Of a stretch of DNA of 32,581 nucleotides, positions 9,703 to 30,759 are shown piece by piece. Origin of the DNA: Candidatus Hadarchaeota archaeon (GTDB taxonomy: Archaea > Hadarchaeota > Hadarchaeia > Hadarchaeales > JAGGTB01). Position numbers and translations under genes: made by a program. The notes below the pieces were generated by a model that was not told where the DNA came from, searched no databases, and saw nothing but the letters and a program-made list of their open reading frames with translations. The stretch lies in contig CAZKND010000006.1 of the NCBI GenBank assembly GCA_964554215.1, forward strand, positions 1 to 32,581, in the 5' to 3' direction. Within the stretch, counting starts at the first letter, position 1. The number at the start of each line of letters is the position of its first letter.

Positions 9703-11790
9703 TTACTCGTTCCGTATAACCACGTTTTCAGGCAATTCGTCCACTCCGAGCGTCCAAGCAGTGTAATAATCCTTCACATTGACCTCATTAGCATCCTCTA
9801 CAACAACGTTTTCCTGGAACGGTGACAAAGAAGCAACCTCAGAATATTGCGACACTCTCTCAAGATGAACGTCGTAAACATTTCCATCCTCTTCACTCAC
9901 TCCCATCGAAACGTCGTCACTCCATATAATCGGATCCTCATAAATCATCCTGAACATCCCCATCCTATTCCCACCAATGCTGGATTCAATATTGATCAAA
10001 TTGTTTACATCCGAACTGTCCATTTCAAAAGTTTCGAAACTTCCCTCCGACAAAGTCTCAGAAGTGCCGTATTTTGTACCGTTAATAGTCAAATAAAAAT
10101 TCTCAGTACTGACCCCAGTTTTATCCCCTCGCATCACAGACCATTCATCCATATAACAAGTTACATCCTCATTCTTAGAATTCCATATCGTCTTTATTAT
10201 CCATGCCTGATCGTTCTCAGGAACGGTGAAACTGCCCTCATACCATTGATAGTTCTCCGTAAGGTCAATATCTTCTATCACCTTCGTTCTACCCATCACT
10301 TCCCGATCTATATTCTCCGTCAAAACCTTCACCGAAACATCCATCGCATTTTCAACCACTTCATCAGCTTTCACCTTCACCCTTATGTCGTACTCGCCAC
10401 CGGGAACAGCCCAAGGGGTCGTACTCCAAGGTATCTTACCGCCTACATGAGCATAACCAAGACTATCCGGCCCTCCAGTTCGCTCATACCATGTGGCTGC
10501 AGCTAAATTGTCTACTCCGTAAAATTTTATCTGTCCATTTTCACTGTACTTCGCAGGGTCCAAACTATCTTCAGATGGTTTTCCATTATTGAAATCGTTT
10601 TCATACCCGAGCCACATATCAGTATAATAATTGAACTTCCTGTTTATCCAAACTAGTTCAGTATCATCTTCGCCTTCTCCAATCAGTTGGACCTTGTAGT
10701 TTTCAGAAACAATTTTATTTTTCCACTCTATAGTCTCTCCATCTTGAGTTATGTGAGGATTCGAAATCCATTCTAAACCTTCCGGGTGATATGTAGAATC
10801 GACTTTTTTGTCCATCAGATGATTGTATCCTATATCAAAAATGTTATTATAGAATCTAATCTTTACATGATTTTCATTTATCTTATAGTGAGTAACACCA
10901 GCACTGTCTCCATGAGCATGCATAGCATTCTTTATCACGTTCACCCCAAACTTCTCAGCATTATACGGTTTTCCAGTGATGTTGTGCCCATGAGTGTAAA
11001 GCAATATCTGGTCATTGTTCTCCAGAAAACCTTCCCACCAAGAATAGGTATCCATCGAATACTTGTACGGTGCCTGAGTGCTGAAAAGGGTCGAACCGTG
11101 AGGGGGCCTGTGAGTCATTATGAAGGTGGTCTTATCAGGATAGATTTCAGTGATTTGCTCAAGCCAATCCCTCTGGGCCCGGTTCAAAACATTATGATTA
11201 CCTAAACCCGTAGAAACCATCAAAAAGAGCAAATTATCGTATTCGTAAGAATAAAACGGAGCGTTCCTACCCATCTCCTCCATATCCCTAGGAACCCAAT
11301 ATGGCTTATCAGGATTGCCCTTGTACTCCTTCTCGAAGGGGCTCTCAAAAACAACATTGAAAAATGTCTCCTTAAACATGCCCTCATAACGATAAGGATA
11401 AGAAGTAGCATCATGGTTCCCCCACAATACAAAATAAGGAAGATGAAGGTCTCTCCATGCGTACTCCCTATCCGGGTCCTTCATAAAATCACGAAGAGAA
11501 TTCTCGGTGGGTGTCTCCCTTCCACCATGCAAGTCCCCGACGTGAACCACAAAATCAACATTGGGAAAACTTTCATCTTTCATAAAATCCTCGACAGCTT
11601 TAGAAACTTTCAAACCCGGCAGAATGTAACCTTCTCTCTGAGAATCAGCTACCACTGCAAACTCCAAACTAGACTCCGAACTTTCACTTGGACCACTCAA
11701 ACAATCCCAATCAACAGAAGCTGTAAAATAGATACCCACACCTAAAACGGCCACGAGTAAGATTAGTAAAAATAGGCGATCCCAGTCCAT
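9703..11790 (-). CDS. Membrane-anchored extracellular calcineurin-like metallophosphoesterase with a long beta-rich C-terminal extension.
   Basis: Anchor LFLLILLVAVLGVGIYF. Metallophosphoesterase motifs in order: VVHVGDLHGG, VLWGNHD, IMTHRPPHG, YTHGHN. About 350 further residues have no motif I recognise. Confidence 0.75.
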   Translation of the reverse strand: MDWDRLFLLILLVAVLGVGIYFTASVDWDCLSGPSESSESSLEFAVVADSQREGYILPGLKVSKAVEDFMKDESFPNVDFVVHVGDLHGGRETPTENSLRDFMKDPDREYAWRDLHLPYFVLWGNHDATSYPYRYEGMFKETFFNVVFESPFEKEYKGNPDKPYWVPRDMEEMGRNAPFYSYEYDNLLFLMVSTGLGNHNVLNRAQRDWLEQITEIYPDKTTFIMTHRPPHGSTLFSTQAPYKYSMDTYSWWEGFLENNDQILLYTHGHNITGKPYNAEKFGVNVIKNAMHAHGDSAGVTHYKINENHVKIRFYNNIFDIGYNHLMDKKVDSTYHPEGLEWISNPHITQDGETIEWKNKIVSENYKVQLIGEGEDDTELVWINRKFNYYTDMWLGYENDFNNGKPSEDSLDPAKYSENGQIKFYGVDNLAAATWYERTGGPDSLGYAHVGGKIPWSTTPWAVPGGEYDIRVKVKADEVVENAMDVSVKVLTENIDREVMGRTKVIEDIDLTENYQWYEGSFTVPENDQAWIIKTIWNSKNEDVTCYMDEWSVMRGDKTGVSTENFYLTINGTKYGTSETLSEGSFETFEMDSSDVNNLINIESSIGGNRMGMFRMIYEDPIIWSDDVSMGVSEEDGNVYDVHLERVSQYSEVASLSPFQENVVVEDANEVNVKDYYTAWTLGVDELPENVVIRNE

Positions 11791-16666: not shown

Positions 16667-17869
16667 TTGAAAACTAGTCGGATTATAGTCATAATACTGC
16701 TTGTAATCCTAGCCGTAGGATTCATCGCTACATATTCAGACGAGGTACAGGACCGAGATATATCCTTCAACAGATTCTTCCGACAAATAGGTCAAAACCT
16801 CCCAGAAGTGGACGAAAAAATACCGATAGGGGAGGAGGACAAGACCATCGACTCCCCGATCTACGGCCCAGCGGAAGCCCCAGCCGTATTGGATTATAAA
16901 GTGCATTCTTATGAAGAAAAACCAGACTCGACTGCTTATTTCAAACCTGGACTCAAATATTCTATAGAATATAGCTTGTCCGGCCTTTACCCTAATCACG
17001 GAGTCGCGGAACTTAAATTAATCAACAGAGGAGACAACCCAATCTTTGTCTATTCCGTAGGTTTGAGAGGAGATTGGATGGAAGAAGGATACTGGTACTC
17101 CAAAAAGACAGGTTTCGAAATTAAACCAGGTGATTCAAAAAACCTAGGGCTGCTATCATTCAGAAGCCCAAAAAATCCAGGAAATCATGACATAAAAGTC
17201 GGAGTATCCGTATTATCAAAAAACAATAGAGGAAATTGGTACGATTACGGAACAAGATATCTAGATTCAAGAGAATACAAGATAAAACCTCTAGCAGAAG
17301 AAAAAGACATCAAAATGGAAAAAGAGGATTATTACTCGGACAAAATCAACGAGCTGATAAATCCGGAAAACCCGGAAATCAAGTCGCAAGCAAACGAAAT
17401 AATCGAGAACTACAGCGGCGAATACAACGTTTATCAGATATGCGCTCTTTTCGATTGGGTCAAAAACAACATTTCTTACGTCAGTGACCCGGAAGGAGAA
17501 CAGGACTGGTCAACTCCTAACGAAACATTGGAACTCGAAGGCGGCGATTGTGAAGACCAAGCGATACTTCTAGCCACGATGATTGAATCAATTGGTGGGC
17601 AAACCCGAATACTTCTCACGGACAATCATGCTTATAGCACTGTTTATATCGGTCCCCCAAATCATGCTGAGAACGTCATGAGTGCTATAAGAAAGTATTA
17701 TGGAACAGAATTATCCTTTGCTTATAGAGTAATAGAAAACCAAGCGTGGTTGGTCCTAGAAAGCTCTGGAGGTCTTTATCCTGGAGATTACCCTGTAGGG
17801 GCAAAACCTACAGAGAGCGCATGGGCATTCACAAACACTGAGAAAATCACCTACGTGACTCCTGAATAA
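16667..17869 (+). CDS. Membrane-anchored transglutaminase-like (papain-fold Cys-His) protein with an intervening beta-sandwich-like region.
   Basis: Anchor IIVIILLVILAVGFIATY. Transglutaminase core GGDCEDQAILLATMIESIGGQTRILLTDNHAYSTVYI (catalytic Cys, then His) and a later WLVLESSGG. TTG start with GGGTGA upstream. Confidence 0.7.
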   Translation: MKTSRIIVIILLVILAVGFIATYSDEVQDRDISFNRFFRQIGQNLPEVDEKIPIGEEDKTIDSPIYGPAEAPAVLDYKVHSYEEKPDSTAYFKPGLKYSIEYSLSGLYPNHGVAELKLINRGDNPIFVYSVGLRGDWMEEGYWYSKKTGFEIKPGDSKNLGLLSFRSPKNPGNHDIKVGVSVLSKNNRGNWYDYGTRYLDSREYKIKPLAEEKDIKMEKEDYYSDKINELINPENPEIKSQANEIIENYSGEYNVYQICALFDWVKNNISYVSDPEGEQDWSTPNETLELEGGDCEDQAILLATMIESIGGQTRILLTDNHAYSTVYIGPPNHAENVMSAIRKYYGTELSFAYRVIENQAWLVLESSGGLYPGDYPVGAKPTESAWAFTNTEKITYVTPE

Positions 17870-21163: not shown

Positions 21164-22006
21164 CTAACCTAAAATTCCACCGAGCTTAGCCCCTTCGTCT
21201 GAAATTTTAAATTTCCTAATCTTCTTACTGTGATCAGAACCTCTCATCTTCAGAACACTTATACTCTTATTGACCTCATTTTCCTCCTCGATATACCTCA
21301 GTAAAATAATTCCATCGGTCAAAGAACTCAATCTGAGGTCACCTGTCTTCATTGAACTCAAATGAGATTTTGAGTCCTCATTGAACATAGGCCTAGCCAT
21401 ATGGGTCATCAAACAAGTGATCCCTCTAGGTTTCAATATAGAGTTCAGCTCCAACAATAATTCCCTCAAATCATCCTTACTCATCTCAGCAGATGGAATA
21501 GAAGAAATCGAATCCACCACCATCCGCTCCACATCCACCGCATCAACTACATCTCTAACATCATGGAGAAACCTGTCAGGATAAGTATCTATCAAATTAG
21601 GCGTGATAAACTCCAAAAGACCATCATCCATATATTTTTCGAAATCCCAACCGTGAGATCTGGCAATGCTTCTAATCTGAGGTGTTGGCTCTTCTAGATT
21701 TACAAACAGAGCTGGCTCCCCCTTCTTCATCCCCTCAACTAAAAATTGCATTGCTAAAGTCGATTTCCCGGTTCCAGTATTACCTGATAAAATAATATTA
21801 TGCCCTTCGGGATATCCTCCATTAAGCATTTCATCCAATTTGTCTACACCGGTTCCTTTTCTATCTTCAAAATCTGTCTCGGCAATAGTCTTCCTAGGAA
21901 TTATTTTGGGATATAGACAAATCCCGTTGGATGTTATATTGAAATTTATCTCACCACTTTTGTAGTCAACCCCCCTCATCTTAAGCACATTTAAGGATCT
22001 GACCAT
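21164..22006 (-). CDS. KaiC-like RecA-superfamily ATPase, C-terminal fragment: tail of domain 1 plus complete domain 2.
   Basis: Begins MVRSLNVLKMRGVDYKSGEINFNITSNGICLYP, which is the C-terminal KMRG..H...F.I...GI element of a preceding KaiC domain. Domain 2 follows, with Walker A ILSGNTGTGKSTLAMQF, Walker B RMVVDSIS and a second SVLKMRGSDHSKKIRKFKISDEG. Confidence 0.8.
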   Translation of the reverse strand: MVRSLNVLKMRGVDYKSGEINFNITSNGICLYPKIIPRKTIAETDFEDRKGTGVDKLDEMLNGGYPEGHNIILSGNTGTGKSTLAMQFLVEGMKKGEPALFVNLEEPTPQIRSIARSHGWDFEKYMDDGLLEFITPNLIDTYPDRFLHDVRDVVDAVDVERMVVDSISSIPSAEMSKDDLRELLLELNSILKPRGITCLMTHMARPMFNEDSKSHLSSMKTGDLRLSSLTDGIILLRYIEEENEVNKSISVLKMRGSDHSKKIRKFKISDEGAKLGGILG

Positions 22007-22017
22007 CTTTCTCTCTC

Positions 22018-22617
22018 CTAAACATAATCCAATTCTATAATCCCATCTGAGATGAAATCCTCCACTTCAAAACGGGAGGAGTACTCCTTCTCTGAAATCA
22101 GAAAAGTCGTGCAACCTAAGCCACTGAGAACAGTTCCTAATCTAAAAATAAAATCCCTAAACAAACCCTTATCACCGAAACGTAATCCCGCAGCTGTTAT
22201 GGAATCTATCACTAATCTTTTAGCATCATAATCCTCAACAAAATCTCTAATTACATCTACAAGATTATCCACATCTTCCCTAACAACATCTTCACCGCCC
22301 TTAATCCCCAAAGCATCCATAATGCTACGAAGATCTGTGACCTTAATATTCCCTTCATTCAAAGCCTCCTCATCGAAAAAGTCCATAGAATTCATATTCT
22401 GAAGAGCTTTTTCAAAAGGCTCAGTAGCAGCTATATATATTCCTGATTCATCAAACTGCTTCTGACCTTCAAATAACCATTGCATTGAAAGAATCGTCTT
22501 ACCGGTTCCTGCTTTACCTCTCAGCAATACAACATGACCCTCTGGGATTCCTCCCTGCAAGGTCTCATCCAATCCATCTATACCTGTCTGTCTAACTTCC
22601 CTATCTAAATCGTTCAT
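22018..22617 (-). CDS. KaiC-like RecA-superfamily ATPase, N-terminal fragment: domain 1 lacking its KMRG tail.
   Basis: GIDGLDETLQGGIPEGHVVLLRGKAGTGKTILSMQWL (Walker A), RLVIDSIT (Walker B). It ends DGIIELDYV* just before the expected KMRG element, which is found in the -1 frame 11 nt downstream. Confidence 0.8.
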   Translation of the reverse strand: MNDLDREVRQTGIDGLDETLQGGIPEGHVVLLRGKAGTGKTILSMQWLFEGQKQFDESGIYIAATEPFEKALQNMNSMDFFDEEALNEGNIKVTDLRSIMDALGIKGGEDVVREDVDNLVDVIRDFVEDYDAKRLVIDSITAAGLRFGDKGLFRDFIFRLGTVLSGLGCTTFLISEKEYSSRFEVEDFISDGIIELDYV

Positions 22618-22883: not shown

Positions 22884-23387
22884 TCATCGATTAGTCCTAG
22901 ACTTTTCAAATATCCAAATCTTATAATTCACCACCCTAACATTCCCTCCTGCCTCAACCACAGTCACACCACCTTCCGAAGGAATACTCCCCCCATAATA
23001 GGCGTTTTCAGGATAAGAAACAGTCCACCTAGCAGTTCCACCATTATCCATCTCCAAACTCATTTCAAGAGCAGCACCTTTTCTCGGAGGGGATAAAAAC
23101 TCCAGCACATTTTCCATCCAGCTATGCAAATATTCATTTTCAACCCTGGGGTTCTTCAAAATCAACTGTTCCGCAGAAGCTTCAAGGGCCCCTACCCCAG
23201 GCCTAGGTTCAGAATGTCTCAAGGTCCCAGCCAAATTAATCCTCTGCATCTCTACTCTACGATTATTCGAAGCTTTGAGCGGGTTGATATTGTAACCGAA
23301 TAGAAGACTCACTGTGATTACAAGAAATAAAAACAGAAAGACAACTACCACTATATCTGAAACACCTTTCTGATCTAACTGTACCAT
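22884..23387 (-). CDS. Pilin-like protein with a class III (type IV prepilin-like) signal peptide; cassette position C'.
   Basis: N-terminus MVQLDQKG|VSDIVVVVFLFLFLVITVSLLFGY has a charged residue, then Gly, then a roughly 20-residue hydrophobic helix. GGAGGT lies 6 nt upstream. The start is nested 13 nt inside the preceding gene. Confidence 0.65.
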   Translation of the reverse strand: MVQLDQKGVSDIVVVVFLFLFLVITVSLLFGYNINPLKASNNRRVEMQRINLAGTLRHSEPRPGVGALEASAEQLILKNPRVENEYLHSWMENVLEFLSPPRKGAALEMSLEMDNGGTARWTVSYPENAYYGGSIPSEGGVTVVEAGGNVRVVNYKIWIFEKSRTNR

Positions 23388-23803
23388 GCTATAACCTCCA
23401 GTTTCGCGGGTTCTCTCCCCTCAGCCATTGTCACAGGAACGGAGATGGAACTTTTCATAGCGTTTCCAGGAGGCGAATTGTCAAAGTAAGCAATCTGTCC
23501 TCCGCTAAAATGTTCTAACCTAATTTTGTACTCGAAAGTCTGACCGGCTAGTTCTCTTTCAAAATCAATCTTCTCATTATCAAGCTTGTTCCTATCCAAC
23601 ATGTATTCCACCGGATTGTTTTCAGCTCCTCTTTTGACAAGGACCCTTGTCGATAAATCAGAAGCAATGCTGGTAGTTGCATCCGAAAGGGTAGTCATCT
23701 CCTGAACTCGCCTATTCTGCCTGTAAGCTGCCAGTGTAGAAGCTATGAAAGTGACCACGAATATTAGTATTATTAAAACTCTAAGTATTCGGGAAATCTC
23801 CAT
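23375..23803 (-). CDS. N-terminally anchored small protein (putative minor pilin / filament accessory); cassette position B'.
   Basis: MEISRILRVLIILIFVVTFIASTLAAY anchor. GGGAGGTCTGAGG lies upstream. The start is 2 nt after the stop of the preceding gene. Confidence 0.6.
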   Translation of the reverse strand: MEISRILRVLIILIFVVTFIASTLAAYRQNRRVQEMTTLSDATTSIASDLSTRVLVKRGAENNPVEYMLDRNKLDNEKIDFERELAGQTFEYKIRLEHFSGGQIAYFDNSPPGNAMKSSISVPVTMAEGREPAKLEVIAWYS

Positions 23804-23805
23804 CC

Positions 23806-24189
23806 TCAGACCTCCCTAACTTCTATCAAATACTCATCATTATCCTCATACAGACTAAATCTTAGATTATAAACACCGGCAGAAAAATTATTTTCCACAT
23901 AAGAATACTGATCCTTCACATCTAGAGTTTCGGTTGAACCATCAATGCTCACAGAATTCTCCTCAAATTTTAGTTGATATCCAGAAGGGACTTCTACCTC
24001 TAATTCAAAATTTTCCCGTGGGTTACCAGGGGTCAAAAAATTCTTAATAACTGCATCATCGATATCTTCCACAGCATCCTGTGCATCCAAATGCGCCTGA
24101 TAATCCTGAAACTGTCCATAACCAACTATGAAACCTAAAACAGAAATACTAGCTAAAACGACCAATCCTACCAATTTTAGAGCATACAT
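23806..24189 (-). CDS. N-terminally anchored small protein (putative minor pilin / filament accessory); cassette position A'. Paralogue of 28717..29070.
   Basis: MYALKLVGLVVLASISVLGFIVGYG anchor. GTGAGGA upstream. Shares V.LASI, IK...TP.N, NFE..V, LKFEE/G.N and G...L.F blocks with the 117-aa protein at 28717. Confidence 0.6.
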   Translation of the reverse strand: MYALKLVGLVVLASISVLGFIVGYGQFQDYQAHLDAQDAVEDIDDAVIKNFLTPGNPRENFELEVEVPSGYQLKFEENSVSIDGSTETLDVKDQYSYVENNFSAGVYNLRFSLYEDNDEYLIEVREV

Positions 24190-24211
24190 AAGTCCTCACA
24201 CTTATCTCGAA

Positions 24212-26173
24212 TTATACACCGATGACGCTCAAGAAGGAAAACCCTAGATAAGACAGAGTAAAGATCGTCGTTCCAGAGATTACAGCCAAAGGCACTTTAT
24301 CCCAGAACTCAATCGGATCCCTTCCTACCTTGATGACAGAAATATGTCTCACGACGATCAAAATCAAAGAGATAACAGTTATACCCATAACTAGAGTCAA
24401 AAGCGCCAACTGTCCCTCTGGAAGCGAACCCGTCAATAATGGGATACCCGACAATCCCGCTCCCTCTGCCGTTTGCTCAACAGATATAGAAATCTCACCC
24501 ATGAAATCCATAACCCAAACCGATAAAGCACAAACCACCGGCAATAGAATCAGTCCCATCATCCAAAGATTTCCCGTAGCATCACCTATCCTCTCTCTAA
24601 ACCTCCTCTCGACATCATTCAAAGTATCCAAAAAATCAGCCGCCTGCATAGAAGCCCTGCCAGCAGCTTTCTCAGAACCCTTCTTAACACGAGTTATCAC
24701 TCCCAACAGATTCGCCACAAGTGGATTGTATATATTACCTAACAATCCCGTCTCGAAAAACGCATAACTAGCATTGGTAGAAAACTTATCCATAGTATCA
24801 GTAGCCTGAGTCAAAATCCGCCCGACATCCGACCCCTCCATCAATCCAGAAGTCTCTTTCATAGCTTGCCTCATAGGTCGACCATCGATGATTCTCGAAC
24901 CGATCACGTTCAAAGCCATAGTCCAATCGCGAGTCGCTTCTCTAATCTGATCCCTAATCTCCGCTCTAGGCCCGACTTTCAAATGCGCATAAACGGCTAT
25001 ACCGCCGGTCAGACCCCAAACTATCCAGAAAGTATTCGGCCAAGCGACCAAAACAGACTCGGCGAAAATATCAGCTAAATAGAAGAATCCTGGAAGTGAA
25101 ATCAGGAGAAATGTGACTAGCGAAGGAATCCAAATCGAAACATTCCTTCCAAGAATTTTTGCCTTTCCGGAAGGGGGAACCCGAGGGTCATCTTGAGGGA
25201 TACTTGGAGGTGGAACGGTAGCAGGACGCTTACGTCCGATGAAAGTGGTAAAAGCAAGGAAACTTATGATAATCGCTGCTGCAGCTAAAGTGAAATACCT
25301 TATATCGATAAAGTTCATGCCAATCAGTCCAAAAATAGGCGACAGCCCTATAACCCCGACAATCACCAAAGAACCGAAAACCATGAATGTCATTGTCGGC
25401 ATCACTAACGAATCCAATCTAGAACCTAACTGTCTCTCCGCACTATCGAGAACTCTATCCGGAGCTTTAGCCACATCCTGCTGACGTAAAGTTTCTTCAG
25501 TCTGACCGGTTGAACGTAAAATATCAAAAATTGCCCTTCTCACACCCTCATCTATCTCACCCCAATTATGGGCTATTACTGTCAATAATTCTCTAACCGA
25601 TTCATAACTCCTCCTCTGATCCATCTCCAAAAATCCTTCTCGAATATCCTCCGCCAGTTTTCCATCGCTTGCATTGGAAGCAAAAATTGCAGCCCCTCTC
25701 AGATCCGGTCGATGATGAAGGGCAAAACTCATCAACATAATGGTTTCAATAGCCCTTGACTGAGCTTCGGACTTAGCTATATCAGCAGAGCTGACCGGAT
25801 AATAATAGAAAACTGCTCCGCACAGGCCTGAAAGCACAACACCCAAAATTGGAAGATACAATATCGAACTGAGTGAAGTCCCCAAGAACAATAAAACTAT
25901 CAATGGAACAATAGTTGCTATAATAGGCAGAAATATTGATGAAAAGAATCCGGCCCACCACTCTGCCGGCGTTACTCTGAGACCCGCCAATGAAATCTTT
26001 TTCCTGGTTTCCTCTTCTAACTCCATACCTTCAGTTAGGCTTCCAAAGATTAGCACTGAAAAACGGCAAATTTTTTCATAAAATGTAAGTGGCTCTTCTT
26101 CCTTTTTTTTAATTTCTTCCAAAATTTCTTTTACGTCTCGAGATACCTCCGGTAAAATATCCGGTTCTTTCAA
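24212..26173 (-). CDS. Polytopic membrane platform protein of the T2SS-F / TadC / FlaJ(ArlJ) / PilC family.
   Basis: 653 aa with a duplicated architecture: TM pair, about 100-aa cytoplasmic helical domain, then TMs. The TTG start overlaps the ATPase stop (TTGA), with GGAGGGTG upstream. Gene order (ATPase, then platform) is canonical for type IV filament systems. Confidence 0.7.
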   Translation of the reverse strand: MKEPDILPEVSRDVKEILEEIKKKEEEPLTFYEKICRFSVLIFGSLTEGMELEEETRKKISLAGLRVTPAEWWAGFFSSIFLPIIATIVPLIVLLFLGTSLSSILYLPILGVVLSGLCGAVFYYYPVSSADIAKSEAQSRAIETIMLMSFALHHRPDLRGAAIFASNASDGKLAEDIREGFLEMDQRRSYESVRELLTVIAHNWGEIDEGVRRAIFDILRSTGQTEETLRQQDVAKAPDRVLDSAERQLGSRLDSLVMPTMTFMVFGSLVIVGVIGLSPIFGLIGMNFIDIRYFTLAAAAIIISFLAFTTFIGRKRPATVPPPSIPQDDPRVPPSGKAKILGRNVSIWIPSLVTFLLISLPGFFYLADIFAESVLVAWPNTFWIVWGLTGGIAVYAHLKVGPRAEIRDQIREATRDWTMALNVIGSRIIDGRPMRQAMKETSGLMEGSDVGRILTQATDTMDKFSTNASYAFFETGLLGNIYNPLVANLLGVITRVKKGSEKAAGRASMQAADFLDTLNDVERRFRERIGDATGNLWMMGLILLPVVCALSVWVMDFMGEISISVEQTAEGAGLSGIPLLTGSLPEGQLALLTLVMGITVISLILIVVRHISVIKVGRDPIEFWDKVPLAVISGTTIFTLSYLGFSFLSVIGV

Positions 26174-28416
26174 TTAACACCCTCCAACCAGCTTTCCCAA
26201 TTGGATAGCGCTTCCTCATAATCCGGTGCATTTTGATCCACCTCGACAAAGTACTTGTCGTAAGCCTTAGTGACAAAAGGTAATTCCAAATATTTGTCAT
26301 CGTCTTCCTCTCTAGCCAACATCAATATTTCTGATTTCATTTTTGCCTCCGCTAATATTTTCTTCAATAAATCATCCGGATCGATAGCCAATCTCTCACA
26401 TTGTCTGTAAACTTTTCTAGAACCTCCGTCCTCCGGAGATAAGAAGCTGAGTTTTTCCGCAGCTTTTTCAACATCCAAATCTGTTAGATCGTAAGAATTA
26501 ACTTTCTCAATCCATTTGTCCGGACCTGAAAAGAGATTAGCAGGTTCAAGAATGTCTTCTGATCTATTATCGGAGAAAAGTTCAACATATTCCGGATCTT
26601 CAGTCCAATCCTTCAAAATTTCAGATACTTCAGTGATTCTCCGGATGGTACCTTCAGAAGTTTCAAACTTACCTGTACTCACGATAAAGTCCACATACTT
26701 GTAAGCCGCCTCATGGAGACCCATTATATTCACGACCAGATCATACATCTGTCTCTTTGTCCTAGCATGGAAACTTGACAATACCGGCTGACTACCTCTC
26801 CGAGCCGCCGCACCGAGTGCTGACTTCACAGCCTCCGTTGAACGGACCTCCGTAATAAGCCAATAGGCAGCACCACCCCGAAGGAAGGCATTTACCTGAT
26901 CCTGAAGATGTTCGGCGTCCATTACCCGAACATTCTCTAACTCATAACCTGTATCTAGGAAATCATCAAACTGAACTTCTTCAGTATCCTGGAATGTAAT
27001 AATCCTGTCTCGAGACCCAATCTCCGGAATTTGAGTAATTAGATAAGAAGTTTTAGCAGTTCCAATGTCTCCAATCGTAAACAAAGAGGAACCCATCCTA
27101 ATCATATTACTAACAAATGAAGATGCTAACGGGGTAATAGATCCCTTTTCGAAAAACAAAGGCTGTGTCCACGGATCTCCCCTTCTCTTACGGATAGCCG
27201 CAGCAGCAGAATTTTCAGTCCAAAGAACAGGATGTCTACTTATGAAAAGCCTCAATCCCAACTCCGGAATTTCAGCATCCAACTGAGGATCAGGCTCATC
27301 GAAAGTTCTACCCAATTTTGAAGCTAGAGTTTCTGCCAACCCCATCAGAGAGGGTGAATCCCAATAAATACCGGTTTCACAGTTCCCCCATTTCTGATGA
27401 ACAATCCTAACGGGCTGCTTTTCGGGCGGGGCCTCTACATAGATATCTGTTATGTTCTCATCCTTACTGATCGGTTCTAAAATCTTATAGTTCAACCACT
27501 TGGCCATCGTCTCCGCTAAGCTTCTAATCTTGTCTGATGGTAAATTCAGGTCTGATTTTTCTTTGACGATATGCAGCAGGGTGTTGTACCAGTCTTCTGC
27601 GAATCCTCGGATCCGGGAGGGTTCGGCAAATCGAGCGTGGGAAGGTGCCGTGTCTATCTCCATCTTGTAGGCTTCGTAGAGGAGGTCGACTTCTTCTTTC
27701 GACAGGTCGAATTCCGGTATTTCTAAAGAGTAGAGAGGTACGGGTCTGTCTTCCTGTTTGTATATTTTCACTTCTCCTCTTTCTTCTTGGAGCGGGTAGG
27801 AGTCCAATAGTTCCAAGTCCCCTTCTGGAGGCTTCCAAACTCCTTCTACGAAAAACGGTTGGATCTTGACATCTAAAACATCGTTATAGTTTGAAGAATC
27901 TAAATCTTTGAAACCTGGAATGCTTTTCAAAGAATCTTTTATTCCGTTTATCAGTGCGAAAAAGTTCTCATCTGAACATTCTGAGCATTCTCCATTTGAT
28001 TGTTCCTCTTCTTCTTTCACCTTGTCTAGAGGTGAGAAATCTTGCGGATTTTTCATTATTTCGGGCCATATCTCTTTCATCTTCTCCATTCGCCGGTCTA
28101 TGCAAGATTCACATTTATCTAACTCCGATTCTGGACTATAGTACGTTCTGTCCCATACATTTGCCTTCAAAACTCCGAGAGTTCGGGCTATCTTTGAGAT
28201 TTTAGAAGTGGAGTAAATATTATCGAAACTAGTGCTCAAAACGACTCTTTCGACTTCCTCCTCACCTGACAAACCTTCAAATACGCATCTTCGACAATTT
28301 TCCGAATCCAGAGAACTTGCCTCCACACACCCATCACAGTCACACTTAGCTACATTTATTGGGCCTGATTTGGTTATATCAGAGCGAGACTCAAATCTTT
28401 CGGTTATAGGTTCCAT
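26170..28416 (-). CDS. Type II/IV secretion-family hexameric ATPase (ArlI/FlaI / PilB / TadA / VirB11 superfamily) with a long Cys-rich N-terminal extension and a C-terminal extension.
   Basis: Core alignment to the family by motif: ITDIYVEAP...VRIVH; AIRKRR; Walker A-like FTIGDIGTAKTSYL; Asp-box/Walker B RIITFQDTEEV; LRGGAAYWLITEVRSTEA (compare LR..PD.IhhGEhRG.EA); His box SSFHA. 748 aa against about 500-550 for typical family members as I recall them. Confidence 0.8.
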   Translation of the reverse strand: MEPITERFESRSDITKSGPINVAKCDCDGCVEASSLDSENCRRCVFEGLSGEEEVERVVLSTSFDNIYSTSKISKIARTLGVLKANVWDRTYYSPESELDKCESCIDRRMEKMKEIWPEIMKNPQDFSPLDKVKEEEEQSNGECSECSDENFFALINGIKDSLKSIPGFKDLDSSNYNDVLDVKIQPFFVEGVWKPPEGDLELLDSYPLQEERGEVKIYKQEDRPVPLYSLEIPEFDLSKEEVDLLYEAYKMEIDTAPSHARFAEPSRIRGFAEDWYNTLLHIVKEKSDLNLPSDKIRSLAETMAKWLNYKILEPISKDENITDIYVEAPPEKQPVRIVHQKWGNCETGIYWDSPSLMGLAETLASKLGRTFDEPDPQLDAEIPELGLRLFISRHPVLWTENSAAAAIRKRRGDPWTQPLFFEKGSITPLASSFVSNMIRMGSSLFTIGDIGTAKTSYLITQIPEIGSRDRIITFQDTEEVQFDDFLDTGYELENVRVMDAEHLQDQVNAFLRGGAAYWLITEVRSTEAVKSALGAAARRGSQPVLSSFHARTKRQMYDLVVNIMGLHEAAYKYVDFIVSTGKFETSEGTIRRITEVSEILKDWTEDPEYVELFSDNRSEDILEPANLFSGPDKWIEKVNSYDLTDLDVEKAAEKLSFLSPEDGGSRKVYRQCERLAIDPDDLLKKILAEAKMKSEILMLAREEDDDKYLELPFVTKAYDKYFVEVDQNAPDYEEALSNWESWLEGVN

Positions 28417-28716
28417 TTTTGTTCCCCTTTTACATTAATGACTAATCGTTTTGGATTTTATCCTTCAGATCAAACGAGTTCATCTGTTATGTTTTAAAAG
28501 GCTGTTTTAATTTATGTGTTTTCTTTTTACCTGGTTTGATGAGTGGAAGAACCATTCAATCTATTTCTCCAAAAAGATGAAAAATAAAGAGTTTAAAAAG
28601 CTATTTCAAGAACAGAAAGACCTCAAAATTATCAAAATTCCAACATGGAAAATTATCTTAAAAACATAAGCCCATAGACAGATTAATCTAGAATAACTAA
28701 AATTAAAAGGGATAAA
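28417..28716. promoter_or_regulatory. Divergent intergenic control region between the two filament operons.
   Basis: 300 bp and very AT-rich, the longest non-coding stretch in the window. It separates divergently oriented first genes. Contains TATA-like TTTTAAAAGG (28492-28501) and TTTAAAAAG (28592-28600), which sit in similar 18-19 nt contexts exactly 100 bp apart. Exact promoters were not determined. Confidence 0.5.
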
Positions 28717-29070
28717 TTGTCCACAGCAATGAAATTATTGGCTAGCGTCATCCTGGCTAGTATCTTCCTCACCATCGCCGGTGCTATAGGAGTTCGACTG
28801 AACACTCAAATAAATAGAGAAGAATTCAAAAGCGAGAGCGAATCTCTAGCAAACACTATAAAGGGTGGCATTACCCCAGAAAACAATTTCGAAATAACAG
28901 TCCCCAACGATTGCAAATTAAAATTTGAAGGGGAAAACATAATCGCTGAAATAAATGAAGTTCAACATCATTATCCTGCAGGAGTTCCGGTCTACGGAGA
29001 TGATTTAGAGCCTGGAACTCACAAATTAAACTTCAAAGAGAATGAGAGAGGAGTGACAATATATGGATGA
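28717..29070 (+). CDS. N-terminally anchored small protein (putative minor pilin / accessory); cassette position A.
   Basis: MSTAMKLLASVILASIFLTIAGAIG anchor. AAGGGA upstream of TTG 28717 (alternative ATG 28726). Paralogous to 23806..24189; see the motif blocks listed there. Confidence 0.6.
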   Translation: MSTAMKLLASVILASIFLTIAGAIGVRLNTQINREEFKSESESLANTIKGGITPENNFEITVPNDCKLKFEGENIIAEINEVQHHYPAGVPVYGDDLEPGTHKLNFKENERGVTIYG

Positions 29071-30082
29071 TAAAGGAAAGATTATCTGGAGACTCCTCTT
29101 CGGAGTCGTCATGGCGGCCCTGTTGATAGGCGTATTGTTAACCTACACTTACACCCAAAGGCAGTTCGCCGAAGAAAAAGAAGCTCAAAACTTAGCCGAC
29201 GACCTATCGAAAACTGCATTTTCAGCCATAGATAGGCAGGAAAGATCTATGACCCTTCCAACAGAGATAGGCGATTCATCTTACAGATTGAAAGTGGATG
29301 AAGATCAGAACGAGTTCCAGATTGAAATTTCAAAAGAGGGAGAAGAAAACAAGACGTTTCGTTCTACCGCGGGAATCAACCTTGAAAACAAAGGGCAGGT
29401 CCCCGACCCCGGAGAAGAGATATATTTCAGAGGGGATGGAGAAAAAGTCTTCTTCTCAGAGGACCCAATAGAAACATTGCCGTCGGATGGAGATGTGAAC
29501 GGGATAGAATATAATTGTCCGGAAAAATTCTACGAAAAAAACAAAAATGAACCGGAAAACTCTACAGGCCTAATTTACGCTTATTTTTACGCAAGGGACC
29601 AAATTGGGGCTGATGTCGATGTTGAGGAATACAAATGGGAGAGTTCTGACAAGTTATTGGTTAAGATTTCTGGAGAAACTTACAGAATCGAATGGAACGA
29701 TTTGCCCGCAGATGAATTTTCTGGTAAAAAAGTAACAAACATAACAGAACCCGAAAACCCTCCTGAAAACGGGTTTAAAGAACCGGGCTATTCGATTAAA
29801 GAAGCCTATGAAGGCGGATGCCTCTACTCCCCGGAAGAAGCAAAAAGCAACATAATGAGAAGGACTTGGGAAGACTATGACGGAAATATAGCTGAATTAT
29901 CCAACATACAATTCGAAGAGGATATTACCGCCACCATAATCGAAACGGATGTCTCAACATTTTCAACATGGAGATTGGAATTCGAGGATTACACATTTTA
30001 CCACGGAACAATGCCTTGGAAACCGGAAGACAACGATCCAGGATTCGCTTTTTACTCGATCGATCATTTGGAGGTGGTGTGA
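29063..30082 (+). CDS. N-terminally anchored 339-aa acidic protein (putative filament-associated / adhesin-like); cassette position B.
   Basis: MDDKG|KIIWRLLFGVVMAALLIGVLLTY. GAGAGGAGTGA upstream. The start is nested 8 nt inside the previous gene. A post-anchor Y.Q.R...E...DLS segment resembles the 142-aa protein at 23375..23803. Confidence 0.6.
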   Translation: MDDKGKIIWRLLFGVVMAALLIGVLLTYTYTQRQFAEEKEAQNLADDLSKTAFSAIDRQERSMTLPTEIGDSSYRLKVDEDQNEFQIEISKEGEENKTFRSTAGINLENKGQVPDPGEEIYFRGDGEKVFFSEDPIETLPSDGDVNGIEYNCPEKFYEKNKNEPENSTGLIYAYFYARDQIGADVDVEEYKWESSDKLLVKISGETYRIEWNDLPADEFSGKKVTNITEPENPPENGFKEPGYSIKEAYEGGCLYSPEEAKSNIMRRTWEDYDGNIAELSNIQFEEDITATIIETDVSTFSTWRLEFEDYTFYHGTMPWKPEDNDPGFAFYSIDHLEVV

Positions 30083-30759
30083 TGGATTTCTCAAAACCCG
30101 GAGAGAAGGGAGCAGCACCGACACTCATAGTCTTTATCCTGTTCGTAATGGTGTCGACAACACTCGTGATTAGTTACATTCAAACAACCGAAGAATCAAC
30201 AGTCAGCAGCATCCAAATGGCTAACGCATCCGACACAACTAGAGCTACTCTTAATTCGATAAACTCCGAGTTGGAAGAAGCCCTCAGAAAATCGGCTACT
30301 GCTGCAATGTACGATGTGGGTATGGGTGGAGGAACTATAGACGAGGTGGAAAATAAGACGAAGGAGTATATGAACAATAGGATAGAAAGAGGCTGGGATT
30401 ACGCCAATTTGGACACTAATATCCCTAAAATAGGCGAAGGTACAAATAATTCCATAGAATTCATAGAACAGCCAAACGGAAGTCTGTTGATTAGACTAAG
30501 ATTGGAAGACAGCGAAATCAAGCATGCATTAGGACCCACAGCCTACGGAACCTATCTACAGGTTAATTTATTCCCTAGATTCAGGAGAATAGAAAGTTTA
30601 GCAAAACAGATCGACAAAGATTTAGAGGACACTGACGATCTTCAAAGTTTAGAGGATAACTACAATGAGAAATACAAATACGAGGGAATAAAAGTCGAAA
30701 TAGAACCCGATAGCATAATCGTAAGAGATCTTTACGCCGGAAGAAGAGTAATAGTTTAA
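30082..30759 (+). CDS. Pilin-like protein with a class III signal peptide; cassette position C.
   Basis: MDFSKPGEKG|AAPTLIVFILFVMVSTTLVISYI resembles the archaeal pilin N-terminal motif (RG-x-S-P-V-I-G-hydrophobic). ATG 30082 overlaps the upstream TGA by 1 nt and has GGAGGTGGTG upstream. I treat the track's longer ORF from 29968 as a spurious 5' extension. Confidence 0.65.
   Translation: MDFSKPGEKGAAPTLIVFILFVMVSTTLVISYIQTTEESTVSSIQMANASDTTRATLNSINSELEEALRKSATAAMYDVGMGGGTIDEVENKTKEYMNNRIERGWDYANLDTNIPKIGEGTNNSIEFIEQPNGSLLIRLRLEDSEIKHALGPTAYGTYLQVNLFPRFRRIESLAKQIDKDLEDTDDLQSLEDNYNEKYKYEGIKVEIEPDSIIVRDLYAGRRVIV

Follow-up and report, generated by a model that had tools for sequence, protein, structure and literature searches.

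A type IV pilus-like gene cluster conserved across Hadarchaeota

Eight genes within a 32,581-nt stretch of hadarchaeal DNA (the window) belong to a conserved type IV pilus-like gene cluster that spans Hadarchaeota, including the brine-pool lineage MSBL1. Most of the encoded proteins have diverged so far that databases label them hypothetical. Its core is an invariably linked pair, consisting of a secretion-superfamily ATPase and a membrane protein of the GspF/PilC fold, and small proteins anchored by their N-termini accompany this pair as a modular set. We consider it likely that, within the type IV filament superfamily, the locus represents a lineage-specific form, conserved across Hadarchaeota, which would build a surface fibre. 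Its most likely role is attachment or cell-cell contact in a free-living anaerobe, rather than motility.

Gene organization and distribution of the locus

An earlier note, made from the sequence of this DNA, had described eight genes in two operons diverging from a 300-bp AT-rich spacer. All eight ORFs, with the same coordinates and lengths, as well as the junction sizes and the spacer, were reproduced on the sequence (Table 1). On the minus strand, the ATPase and platform genes overlap by 4 nt (TTGA), a gap of 22 nt separates the platform from the 127-aa gene and one of 2 nt the 127-aa from the 142-aa gene, and the 142-aa and 167-aa genes overlap by 13 nt. On the plus strand, the overlaps are 8 nt between the 117-aa and 339-aa genes and 1 nt between the 339-aa and 225-aa genes. 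The spacer presumably carries promoters for both operons, and the divergent arrangement recurs in four related loci (L002, L003, L035 and L049). A GGAGG-type ribosome-binding site had been ascribed to every gene; the full GGAGG is present at four of the eight, and the other four have the partial forms GGGG, GAGG, GGAG and AGGG.

Table 1. Features of the locus and its flank (dN/dS ratios approximate; arrow, predicted or probable class III junction)
Feature	Position	Strand	dN/dS	Remarks
Two-domain KaiC-family ATPase gene	21164..22617	-		Immediately downstream of the locus, across a 266-nt AT-rich gap
m167, pilin-like, 167 aa	22884..23387	-	0.06	Canonical class III signal peptide; invariant junction
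m142, N-terminally anchored, 142 aa	23375..23803	-	0.12	Conserved family; 16 orthologues
m127, leaderless pilin-like, 127 aa	23806..24189	-	0.17	M-Y-A-L-K start, then hydrophobic helix
Polytopic membrane platform, 653 aa	24212..26173	-		TTG start; GspF/PilC/TadC/FlaJ-like by fold only
Assembly ATPase, 748 aa	26170..28416	-		Secretion-ATPase superfamily, 'long' archaeal type (Pfam T2SSE, profile matches, motifs)
Divergent intergenic spacer	28417..28716	.		300 bp, 27.7% GC, several TATA-like A/T runs
p117, leaderless pilin-like, 117 aa	28717..29070	+	0.22	TTG start; m127 paralogue (hhalign 99%)
p339, N-terminally anchored, 339 aa	29063..30082	+	0.09	First ~130 aa homologous to m127/p117
p225, 225 aa	30082..30759	+	0.05	Probable class III-type junction MDFSKPGEKG↓AAPTLIVFILF; 20 orthologues

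The eight ORFs are under purifying selection, with dN/dS of 0.026-0.22 against relatives ~92% identical in ATPase and platform, ratios that are approximate because dS is near saturation. Together with orthologues of each gene in other assemblies, far beyond chance, these values bear out the earlier view that the genes are real. All six small-protein families are conserved in Hadarchaeota loci in fixed gene orders, contrary to the possibility that the small ORFs might lack conservation in relatives. The ATPase and platform genes are adjacent in 45 of 48 related loci, all Hadarchaeota, and the commonest hadarchaeal layout is a single operon of ATPase, platform and then five small pilin-like genes. 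'Type B' Hadarchaeota loci lack m142, m167 and a pilin gene, p150 (see below).

Every close homologue, like all 45 related genome loci, comes from Hadarchaeota, Hadesarchaea or MSBL1, and a nanohaloarchaeal or other DPANN host was therefore rejected. The earlier suggestion of a host-contact apparatus, read as that of an ectosymbiont, thus loses its basis.

A divergent assembly ATPase paired with a GspF/PilC-fold platform

Membership of the type IV filament superfamily, as previously proposed, is upheld by the Pfam T2SSE match of the ATPase (28.4 bits; gathering score 24.9) and by the fold of the platform. The ATPase core is flanked by a ~290-aa N-terminal extension with Cys clusters and a ~130-aa C-terminal tail, and its motifs deviate (Walker A GDIGTAKTS, Asp box FQDTEE, Walker B WLITEVR, His box SFHAR). 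In searches of the PDB, the family profile matched Archaeoglobus fulgidus GspE (2oap; 1.8e-21), FlaI (4ii7; 2.1e-21) and CpaF (5e-17).

The enzyme had been called atypical, and this can now be made more specific. A Walker A G(T/S)AKTS and an Asp box FQDT are invariant in the family (28 homologues), so that a Gly-to-Ala change in Walker A and a Glu-to-Gln change in the Asp box are both fixed. More distantly related 'long' archaeal ATPases, ~120 of which have a readable motif, include one with the Ala and one other with the Gln: Walker A is G(S/A)GKTS in all but P0205 (locus L053), and the Asp box is IEDT wherever readable, except for IQDT in P0258. These substitutions suggest altered, possibly slower, ATP turnover. 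The ATPase could therefore work unlike canonical assembly ATPases, which weighs against a pilus.

Could the locus instead encode an archaellum, intact or degenerate? The ATPase scores highest with FlaI among the NCBIfam models and has FlaI as one of its two best PDB matches, a KaiC/ArlH-like ATPase adjoins the locus, and the small anchored proteins superficially resemble ArlF and ArlG. However, the ATPase scores 71.8 bits against a FlaI cut-off of 550, and the KaiC ORFs score 44 bits against an ArlH cut-off of 215. Archaellin and Arl/Fla accessory models listed no match among the tested proteins, and the enzymes most closely related to the ATPase are of the 'long' non-archaellum kind; the ATPase was thus not found within an ArlI group with archaellin genes nearby. 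MSBL1 genomes, moreover, lack the motility cluster and possess pilus-assembly genes (PMC4725937). A rotary motility organelle is thereby effectively refuted, in line with the earlier note. The ATPase also scored under the curated cut-offs for TadA (47 bits; cut-off 373) and VirB11 (35; cut-off 250), had no match to the BasE model, and gave no score with GspE models at the reporting limit of E <= 1; no curated FlaI, TadA, VirB11 or BasE cut-off was attained.

The description of the neighbouring protein as a TadC/FlaJ-like platform stands at the level of fold and fails at the level of sequence. The platform has no Pfam or NCBIfam match; Pfam T2SSF matches only three members of the family out of 30 (best E 0.0038), and no internal duplication is detectable, both of which speak against a pilus. 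Its AF2 model (pLDDT 80, pTM 0.74) contains predicted cytoplasmic domains that match those of EpsF, OutF and PilC in Foldseek with a probability of 0.99-1.00 and TMt of 0.70-0.77: the EpsF cytoplasmic domain (2vmb/3c1q; probability 1.00, TMt 0.70), OutF (5nbg; TMt 0.77) and the PilC N-domain (2whn; TMt 0.73), with SpoIIIAB also found. It is homologous from end to end with a 649-aa Methanolobus protein that adjoins a long ATPase (hhalign 99.6%).

Pilin-like and leaderless small proteins

The six small proteins had been described together as anchored. Each has exactly one hydrophobic segment, at the N-terminus, as claimed; as a set they are heterogeneous, comprising one canonical class III protein, one probable one, three leaderless paralogues and one that is unplaced. 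All six families are absent from Pfam and have no match to Pilin_N or any other pilin family, which agrees with the earlier statement that no recognisable major-pilin family is present, and which counts against the pilus reading. None of the six could thus be assigned to a described pilin family that would make the locus known biology.

The canonical signal peptide is that of m167, with a predicted cleavage at MVQLDQKG↓VSDIVVVVFLF and a family junction of (K/R)G↓VSD. Across 15 orthologues there is no variation at G8, S10 or D11 and almost none at V9, confirming the class III junction proposed for this gene. The junction resembles the RG↓VSPV of a control Pilin_N protein (L034:13024-13458; Pilin_N E 2.1e-15), and the m167 family itself has no Pilin_N match. 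The class III-like junction proposed for p225 is probable: position -1 is G or A in all 20 orthologues, followed by (A/S)A(P/A)(T/L)L. Of the small components, p225 is the most broadly conserved; it occurs in all three locus types and always closes the small-protein gene set. Its AF2 model (pLDDT 69) has an N-terminal helix at residues 12-48 and then an alpha/beta globule, with no Foldseek or PDB match and no match to any known pilin, a further point against a pilus. The third proposed junction, DKG↓K in p339, is not conserved in distant orthologues, which start MSDTYELPF, and is therefore probably not a cleavage site.

In relatives, a canonical pilin, p150, with an Ig-like domain and an ERG↓VEP junction, is encoded between the platform and m127 genes. 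Like m167, it has an archaeal class III signal peptide of canonical form, and it is the only clearly canonical pilin of the locus family. The p150 gene had been overlooked in the earlier note. Alignments indicate that m127, p117 and the N-terminus of p339 are mutual paralogues, weakly homologous to p150, and that they start where a mature pilin would, with no leader. The m127 N-terminus aligns with the mature N-terminus of p150; nearly all of the 22 family members start M-x-A-(L/M)-(K/R), and an in-frame stop lies three codons 5' of the m127 ATG. Similarly, the p117 N-terminus (M-STAMKLLAS) aligns with mature p150 from +3 on (VEPTVMKILVG). With hhalign, m127 matches the p117 family at 99%, the N-terminal 130 aa of p339 at 94% (110 columns) and p150 more weakly, at 52% (E 1e-4). 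The C-terminal ~200 aa of p339 form an acidic domain, its nine orthologues each follow a p117-type gene, and its sole Pfam match is a faint one to DUF7266, below threshold (E 0.0026). As for m142, it has neither a cleavage motif nor a Pfam match, and its 16 orthologues in Hadarchaeota loci always sit between those of m127 and m167.

The p150 gene is lost from the window's clade, being absent from the window and from three independent close assemblies, an observation against the pilus reading. A decaying remnant that now builds nothing would account for this loss and for the state of the adjoining KaiC gene, which a stop codon together with a change of frame divides in the window into ORFs of 199 and 280 aa (Pfam KaiC, 5.6e-47 and 8.2e-56). 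Yet the eight genes are intact, with dN/dS of 0.03-0.22, 'type B' loci do without p150, m142 and m167 as well, and pilins can come in trans (PMC4858521). Close relatives L050 and L051 moreover have an intact, 484-aa KaiC in the same position, so the break is either private to the window's assembly or an assembly error. Decay is accordingly very improbable.

Neighbouring genes and the nature of the fibre

The downstream KaiC gene had also been overlooked. KaiC-family ATPases have been reported near archaeal type IV pilus loci (PMC4858521), and this one is a possible regulator, its membership in the machine being putative. Among the window ORFs tested, none matched Peptidase_A24, archaellin or Pilin_N, consistent with the earlier statement that the window holds no prepilin peptidase. 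The flanks of the related genome loci, passed through a crude filter, yielded none either, which tells against the pilus reading.

The window also encodes N-terminally anchored glycosidase, phosphoesterase and transglutaminase-like proteins. These are the candidate cargo if the locus forms not a long adhesive pilus but a short pseudopilus or surface-organising system, type II secretion-like or Sulfolobus bindosome-like, in which about five pilin-like proteins would make a small fibre that pushes or arranges exported surface proteins. The five small pilin-like genes that follow ATPase and platform in the commonest layout do recall GspG-K, although the ATPase has no BasE match and lies far under GspE-type models. 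A 708-aa LamG and GH30 protein (5024-7150) has a class III-like N-terminus (SSREA↓ISLFTVLF), but this is a single loose pattern match, and the exported enzymes are not linked to the locus elsewhere. In the window's clade, from which the Ig-like putative major pilin is missing, the remaining genes are still under selection, and a secretion role has been proposed for MSBL1 pilus genes (PMC4725937); archaea, however, have no outer membrane to cross. We regard a pseudopilus as unlikely.

Proposed mechanism

In the preferred reading, a surface fibre, the ATPase hexamer would dock on the platform's cytoplasmic helical domains, and ATP-driven movements would raise processed pilin-like subunits from the membrane into a helical fibre. 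In the window, the subunits would be m167 and probably p225, and a pilin encoded elsewhere may contribute, as in Haloferax PilB3/PilA. By contrast, m127, p117, the p339 N-terminus and m142 would keep their N-terminal anchor and stay membrane-bound, forming a base or collar similar to that of ArlF/ArlG or of GspL/M and PilN/O. The acidic C-terminal domain of p339 is a candidate surface-exposed or adhesive part. Cleavage of signal peptides would require an A24 peptidase from outside the window.

Relation to known systems

The euryarchaeal 'clade 2' pili (Haloferax volcanii PilB3/PilC3 with PilA; the PilB4 locus), catalogued by Makarova, Koonin and Albers (2016; PMC4858521) in a census older than the Hadarchaeota genomes, likewise have a tightly linked ATPase/TadC-like pair and nearby KaiC-family ATPases, and some of their ATPases have extra N- and C-terminal domains. 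Their pilin sets, as here, are modular, exchanged between ATPase/TadC modules and sometimes supplied in trans (PMC4858521). They differ in that the platform and small proteins here are undetectable by Pfam/NCBIfam models, the ATPase has the Walker A Ala and Asp-box Gln, and several pilin homologues are leaderless.

A 'long' ATPase with a ~650-aa platform also occurs in Methanolobus zinderi (WP_176964379), Methanosarcina, Altiarchaeales and other uncultured archaea. The ATPase architecture is the same (N-terminal Cys clusters, core, C-terminal W..W tail), and the outgroup locus L054 shares the divergent layout with small anchored proteins. Identity is only 27-31%, however, and in Methanolobus the pair has no small genes beside it. 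As far as could be determined, we traced no characterisation of these systems.

ArlF and ArlG are bitopic proteins whose N-terminal anchor is not cleaved and whose external domain is rich in beta structure; they are relatives of filament subunits kept at the base, a role that we propose by analogy for m127, p117, m142 and p339. In the NCBIfam search, ArlF/ArlG models were not listed as matches for these four, and the setting differs, as the ATPase is not ArlI and there are no archaellins. Type II secretion (GspE, GspF, GspG-K) and Tad pili (TadA, TadB/C, Flp, TadE/F) have in common with the locus the ATPase superfamily, a GspF-fold platform and an operon with about five pilin-like genes; the secretin, outer membrane and Flp pilin are all absent here, and the ATPase is far below the TadA cut-off.

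Methanococcus Epd pili ('clade 1') also have about five minor pilin-like proteins per locus. Unlike them, the hadarchaeal locus lacks the EppA peptidase, FleN/MinD and split TadC genes, and the pilins share no sequence similarity. The Epd/'clade 1' pilin junction is G↓Q; here it is G↓V or G↓A. A DUF2341 domain is predicted to mark the pilus-tip adhesins of 'clade 1' (PMC4858521), and the related locus L053 carries an extra, 1306-aa DUF2341 protein.

Eight conserved genes in two divergent operons

All eight ORFs of the locus lie at exactly the coordinates and have exactly the lengths that the earlier note had read from the sequence, and the junctions within the operons are also as claimed there, with overlaps of 4, 13, 8 and 1 nt and gaps of 22 and 2 nt. 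The same note had assigned a GGAGG ribosome-binding site to every gene; a complete GGAGG precedes four of the eight, but the other four have only partial Shine-Dalgarno-like motifs. Each of the six small proteins does carry one hydrophobic segment, at its N-terminus.

Positions of the locus genes and of neighbouring features in the window
Feature	Position	Strand	Length	Remark
ATPase	26170-28416	-	748 aa	
Platform	24212-26173	-	653 aa	TTG start
m127	23806-24189	-	127 aa	
m142	23375-23803	-	142 aa	
m167	22884-23387	-	167 aa	
Divergent spacer	28417-28716		300 bp	GC 27.7%
p117	28717-29070	+	117 aa	TTG start
p339	29063-30082	+	339 aa	
p225	30082-30759	+	225 aa	
KaiC-family gene	21164-22617	-		two-domain
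LamG + GH30 glycosidase	5024-7150	-	708 aa	
Metallophosphoesterase	9703-11790		695 aa	single N-terminal anchor
Transglutaminase-like protein	16667-17869		400 aa	single N-terminal anchor

Relative to two close relatives (L049 and L050, ~92% identical to the window in ATPase and platform), dN/dS is 0.026 for both the ATPase and the platform, and the six small genes range from 0.05 to 0.22; all these values are approximate because dS is close to saturation. All eight genes are genuine: conservation and low dN/dS rule out spurious small ORFs, and the conservation and selection of all parts of the locus can be regarded as established. The selection on the genes also contradicts the idea that the locus is a decaying remnant, which we therefore consider very improbable.

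Every named homologue of the ATPase (91) and of the platform (92) comes from Hadarchaeota, Hadesarchaea, Hadarchaeum or 'candidate division MSBL1', and a scan with family-specific peptide patterns, in which each GTDB species was represented by one genome, returned 45 loci, all from Hadarchaeota. Because the patterns are family-specific, the scan is no proof of absence in other lineages. Given these homologues and loci, a nanohaloarchaeal or DPANN attribution is unsupported. Two loci with an ATPase identity of 81% (L002 and L035) are organised as in the window, and flanking HAD-hydrolase and B3_4 genes are common to the window, L002 and L049. In public annotation the ATPase is named generically, and the source-named homologues of every other component are hypothetical proteins.

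A remodelled secretion ATPase paired with a putative GspF-fold platform

The Pfam T2SSE model matches the window ATPase with 28.4 bits (gathering score 24.9). When a profile of 28 family sequences was compared with the PDB, it matched A. fulgidus GspE (2oap, 1.8e-21), S. acidocaldarius FlaI (4ii7, 2.1e-21), CpaF (5e-17) and VirB11 (4e-7), with the matches confined to profile positions 275-615, which contain the Walker A, Asp box, Walker B and His box motifs. These similarities indicate that the window ATPase is a member of the secretion superfamily (GspE/PilB/FlaI/VirB11).

The earlier note called this ATPase atypical, and rightly so. Walker A is invariant in the family alignment as G-x-x-G-(T/S)-A-K-T-S, in which Ala replaces the usual P-loop Gly, and the Asp box is invariant as F-Q-D-T, in which Gln replaces the usual Glu; Walker B (W-L-I-T-E-V-R) and the His box (S-F-H-A) are likewise invariant. 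When 1.84 billion cluster representatives were searched exhaustively, 86 proteins came up at E ≤ 1e-30. Beyond the Hadarchaeota family, scores drop to ~200 bits and identity to 27-31%, and these distant matches make up a broad set of 'long' archaeal ATPases of 690-840 aa that have the N-terminal Cys-cluster region and the C-terminal tail in common. Those with a source name include proteins of Methanolobus zinderi, Methanosarcina and Altiarchaeales as well as of other uncultured archaea. Among the matches listed, a motif tally found the combination of Ala in Walker A and Gln in the Asp box in the Hadarchaeota family only. The ~118 other matches listed have GK(T/S), and their Asp box, where readable, is ED except in one ATPase homologue (P0258, IQDT); one intermediate (P0205) combines AK in Walker A with ED in the Asp box. 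The two substitutions are derived and lineage-specific, and they may affect function.

Two further features of these ATPases were observed. A second Hadarchaeota subfamily (loci L041 and L043; proteins P0086-P0091) is ~660 aa long and 36-40% identical to the window's ATPase; the ATPases of the L041/L043 type are without the second N-terminal Cys cluster, and their partner platform is more divergent (27-30% identity). Several 'long' archaeal homologues of 1100-1800 aa (P0217, P0256 and others) contain one or two large intein-like insertions, which in P0217 apparently split the Asp box, as it reads ...VQEDS|VTGD...HNTLELPV.

The platform is far harder to recognise. The 653-aa window protein has no match in Pfam or NCBIfam, T2SSF matches 3 of 30 relatives with a best E of 0.0038, a family profile searched against PDB sequences returned designed helical repeats only, and hhalign of the N-terminal against the C-terminal half detected no internal duplication. 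Its AF2 model (pLDDT 80, pTM 0.74) is all-helical, with transmembrane helices between two cytoplasmic helical bundles. At a Foldseek probability of 0.99-1.00, these bundles match the cytoplasmic domain of EpsF/GspF (TMt 0.70), OutF (TMt 0.77) and the N-domain of PilC (TMt 0.73), as well as SpoIIIAB. The platform gene adjoins the ATPase gene in 45 of 48 loci. By predicted fold and by context, we accept the 653-aa protein as a putative GspF/TadC/FlaJ-type platform, though at the sequence level it falls outside the families of that type. We take as established the superfamily of the ATPase, its obligate pairing with the platform gene and, at the level of predicted fold, the GspF-like nature of the platform.

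The ~650-aa platform family reaches beyond Hadarchaeota. An unannotated 649-aa protein of Methanolobus zinderi is homologous to the window platform over its full length (596 columns, hhalign probability 99.6%, E 1.6e-24). In that genome (CP058215.1; L052:10001-14447, plus strand) the gene for this membrane protein stands with that of an 839-aa long ATPase as a pair alone, with no adjoining pilin-like genes.

Small proteins with and without class III-type leaders

Iterative searches over the ORFs of the fetched loci defined seven small families, namely the six of the window and p150, a pilin-like family of relatives. None is matched by a Pfam or NCBIfam model; across the orthologues of every small family, Pfam gave faint sub-threshold signals only (DUF7266, DUF7285, DUF7289 and Ig-like domains). 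Pilin_N (PF07790) matched none of the six window proteins, none of 15 members of the m167 family and none of the other orthologues tested.

The earlier note had proposed class III (archaeal prepilin) signal peptides for three of the window proteins, and two of these stand. In m167 the junction (K/R)G|VSD, in which the bar marks the predicted cleavage site, is invariant and is followed by a hydrophobic stretch of ~20 residues; at the motif level it conforms to the archaeal class III pattern. As a control, a Hadarchaeota pilin recognised by Pilin_N (Pfam E 2.1e-15) reads KRG|VSPV. In p225, position -1 is G or A in 20 of 20 orthologues, and (A/S)A(P/A)TL comes next, ahead of a hydrophobic stretch; since position -2 varies, cleavage is probable, short of certain. 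The third junction, DKG|K in p339, is unconserved. The conserved class III-type junctions can themselves be considered established.

By hhalign, m127 and p117 are paralogues at 99% probability, and the N-terminal ~130 aa of p339 group with these two at 94%. Nearly all members start with M-x-A-(L/M)-(K/R), and because their N-termini align with that of a canonical pilin in its mature form, they are leaderless; a longer m127 ORF is excluded by an in-frame stop three codons upstream. No cleavage motif is present in m142.

Searched against PDB sequences, the m167, p150 and p225 profiles returned nothing except, for p150, a weak Ig/cadherin signal. An AF2 model of p225 was built from a 13-sequence alignment (pLDDT 69) and shows an alpha/beta globule that follows a long N-terminal helix; its fold could not be placed, since the best Foldseek match in the PDB had an E of 0.13 and a probability < 0.25.

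An invariant acidic residue lies shortly past the predicted cleavage site in both m167 (Asp +3, G|VSD) and p150 (Glu +2, G|VEP; e.g. L017:12161-12598). Bacterial type IV pilins have a conserved Glu5, which this residue recalls.

Modular layouts and a clade-wide loss of p150

In many Hadarchaeota the gene for p150 (~150 aa) directly follows the platform gene. Its product starts ...ERG|VEP(T/L)(V/A)MK(I/L)..G.(I/V)L... and has an Ig-like beta domain at the C-terminal end, which makes it the obvious candidate for the major pilin. In the window, tblastn with the p150 proteins of relatives found no copy, and only 22 nt lie at the expected position. The same p150-less state is seen in L049, L050 and L051; as three independent close assemblies are alike, the loss is real and clade-wide, and an assembly artefact is ruled out. 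Candidates for the fibre subunit of this clade are m167, p225 and a pilin supplied in trans.

The loci follow three layouts, and this modularity is established. In the first, ATPase, platform, p150, m127, m142, m167 and p225 form one operon; in the second, ATPase and platform are accompanied by a trio of p117-like, p339 and p225 genes, nearby or divergent; the third has both small-protein sets, and the window corresponds to it minus p150. The ATPase, the platform, one m127/p117-type protein and p225 are constant across layouts. A metagenomic relative (L053) has an ATPase merely 28% identical to the window's, yet it has the full small-protein set (HMM E 1e-39 to 1e-103). There, a 1306-aa DUF2341 protein precedes the set (L053:2390-8700, minus strand), and an Exosortase_EpsH-like gene lies beside them (L053:1828-2475, plus strand). 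DUF2341 proteins are predicted tip adhesins of archaeal type IV pili, systems in which ATPase/TadC modules and pilin sets swap, pilins are encoded in trans and KaiC-family genes are neighbours (PMC4858521).

Comparison with known systems

Two features of the type IV filament superfamily are found in the locus: a superfamily ATPase and, at the motif level, class III pilins (m167 and p225, with p150 in relatives). Together with the GspF-like fold predicted for the platform, they bear out the earlier assignment to this superfamily. We then compared the locus with individual members, and the window ATPase stays far below every curated cut-off.

An archaellum fails every test and has a negligible chance of being correct. 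The FlaI model NF058587 gives the window ATPase 71.8 bits against a cut-off of 550, the neighbouring KaiC ORFs reach 42-45 bits with the ArlH model (cut-off 215), and the Pfam and NCBIfam matches listed for the proteins of the locus include no archaellin, ArlC/D/E (or ArlX), ArlF or ArlG. The earlier statement that nothing here resembles archaellins or the ArlC-H order holds. Among the Pfam and NCBIfam matches listed for 20 window ORFs there was likewise no A24 prepilin peptidase, archaellin or archaellum accessory model, and a crude filter (at least 4 hydrophobic segments plus GxGD/GxHD, short of an HMM test) found no A24-like peptidase in the ORFs of L001-L048. At L034:11671-13458 (minus strand), the ATPase-platform pair is closely followed by a KaiC-like gene and by the Pilin_N pilin with KRG|VSPV; pilins of the standard archaeal type are thus present in Hadarchaeota, presumably with a processing peptidase.

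A Tad (Flp) pilus is ruled out by TadA TIGR03819 (47 bits against a cut-off of 373) and by the lack of T2SSF and Flp matches. Type IV secretion or conjugation is excluded as well: the ATPase reaches 35 bits with VirB11 TIGR02788, for which the cut-off is 250, the window ORFs tested contain neither VirB4 or VirD4 nor a relaxase, and the membrane partner has a GspF fold. BasE scores rule out the Sulfolobus bindosome assembly system (Bas), as NF053672 (cut-off 1000) leaves the window ATPase unmatched at E up to 1 and gives its long-clade relatives 28-102 bits. A pseudopilus or a bindosome-like surface-organising system is an unlikely reading of the locus.

Euryarchaeal clade 2 type IV pili combine an ATPase of arCOG01817-01819, 05609 or 05558 with the cognate TadC arCOG (PMC4858521), and the window locus is alike in organisation, as judged by the description in that paper (Makarova et al. 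2016). In MSBL1 genomes the motility cluster is absent and pilus-assembly genes are widespread, the latter being analysed no further there (PMC4725937).

A likely type IV filament machine of Hadarchaeota

Based upon these comparisons, we think it likely that the locus encodes a lineage-specific type IV filament machine. In such a machine, a hexamer of the ATPase would act on the platform, and processed subunits would be drawn out into a fibre, possibly with an adhesive role. The leaderless paralogues may stay in the membrane and form the base, in a role analogous to that of ArlF/ArlG or GspL/M, and leaders would be processed by a peptidase encoded elsewhere. A less probable version, to which we give little weight, is a partly peptidase-independent type IV filament variant, in which the universal small subunits are the leaderless m127/p117-type proteins and p225, and the remodelled ATPase is possibly slow or switch-like. 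Leaderless subunits would require no prepilin peptidase, and, if true, this would be a modified form of the type IV filament mechanism, more than a divergent pilus.

The lineage-specific filament machine that we favour is of a kind already known; as it works by the modular logic documented for archaeal type IV pili, it refines existing knowledge and does not overturn it. On the limited literature covered, it is an uncatalogued, phylum-wide variant, which may have been described earlier elsewhere. Three things distinguish it: current family models recognise neither the platform nor any of the small subunits, the leader has been lost in several pilin homologues, and the Walker A and Asp-box motifs of the ATPase are remodelled. 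Both the pilin paralogues without a leader and the invariant changes in the two ATPase motifs are mechanistic peculiarities open to testing.

Hadarchaeota and MSBL1 are uncultured, cosmopolitan archaea of the subsurface and of brine pools, and we know of no description of their cell surface. The locus is a phylum-wide surface-fibre candidate for Hadarchaeota, and the seven protein families with their gene order, together with the ~650-aa platform family, offer concrete targets for annotation pipelines and metaproteomics. The module of long ATPase and ~650-aa platform in Methanosarcinales, Altiarchaeales and other archaea marks a wide branch of type IV pilus-like systems in archaea that is poorly annotated.

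Neighbouring genes

An AT-rich gap of 266 nt separates the m167 gene from the next gene downstream, which encodes a two-domain KaiC-family ATPase and is split into ORFs of 199 and 280 aa by a TAG stop and then a frame change near 22006-22018. It is intact (484 aa) at the equivalent position in L050 and L051 (~92% identical in ATPase and platform), and the split in the window reflects either recent pseudogene formation or an error of sequencing or assembly.

Further away, the N-terminus of the LamG and GH30 glycosidase, MSNISSSREA|ISLFTVLFALVIIF, fits a loose class III pattern, and the metallophosphoesterase and the transglutaminase-like protein are two more large enzymes with a single N-terminal anchor. 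From this single pattern match, all three could be clients of pilin-type export.
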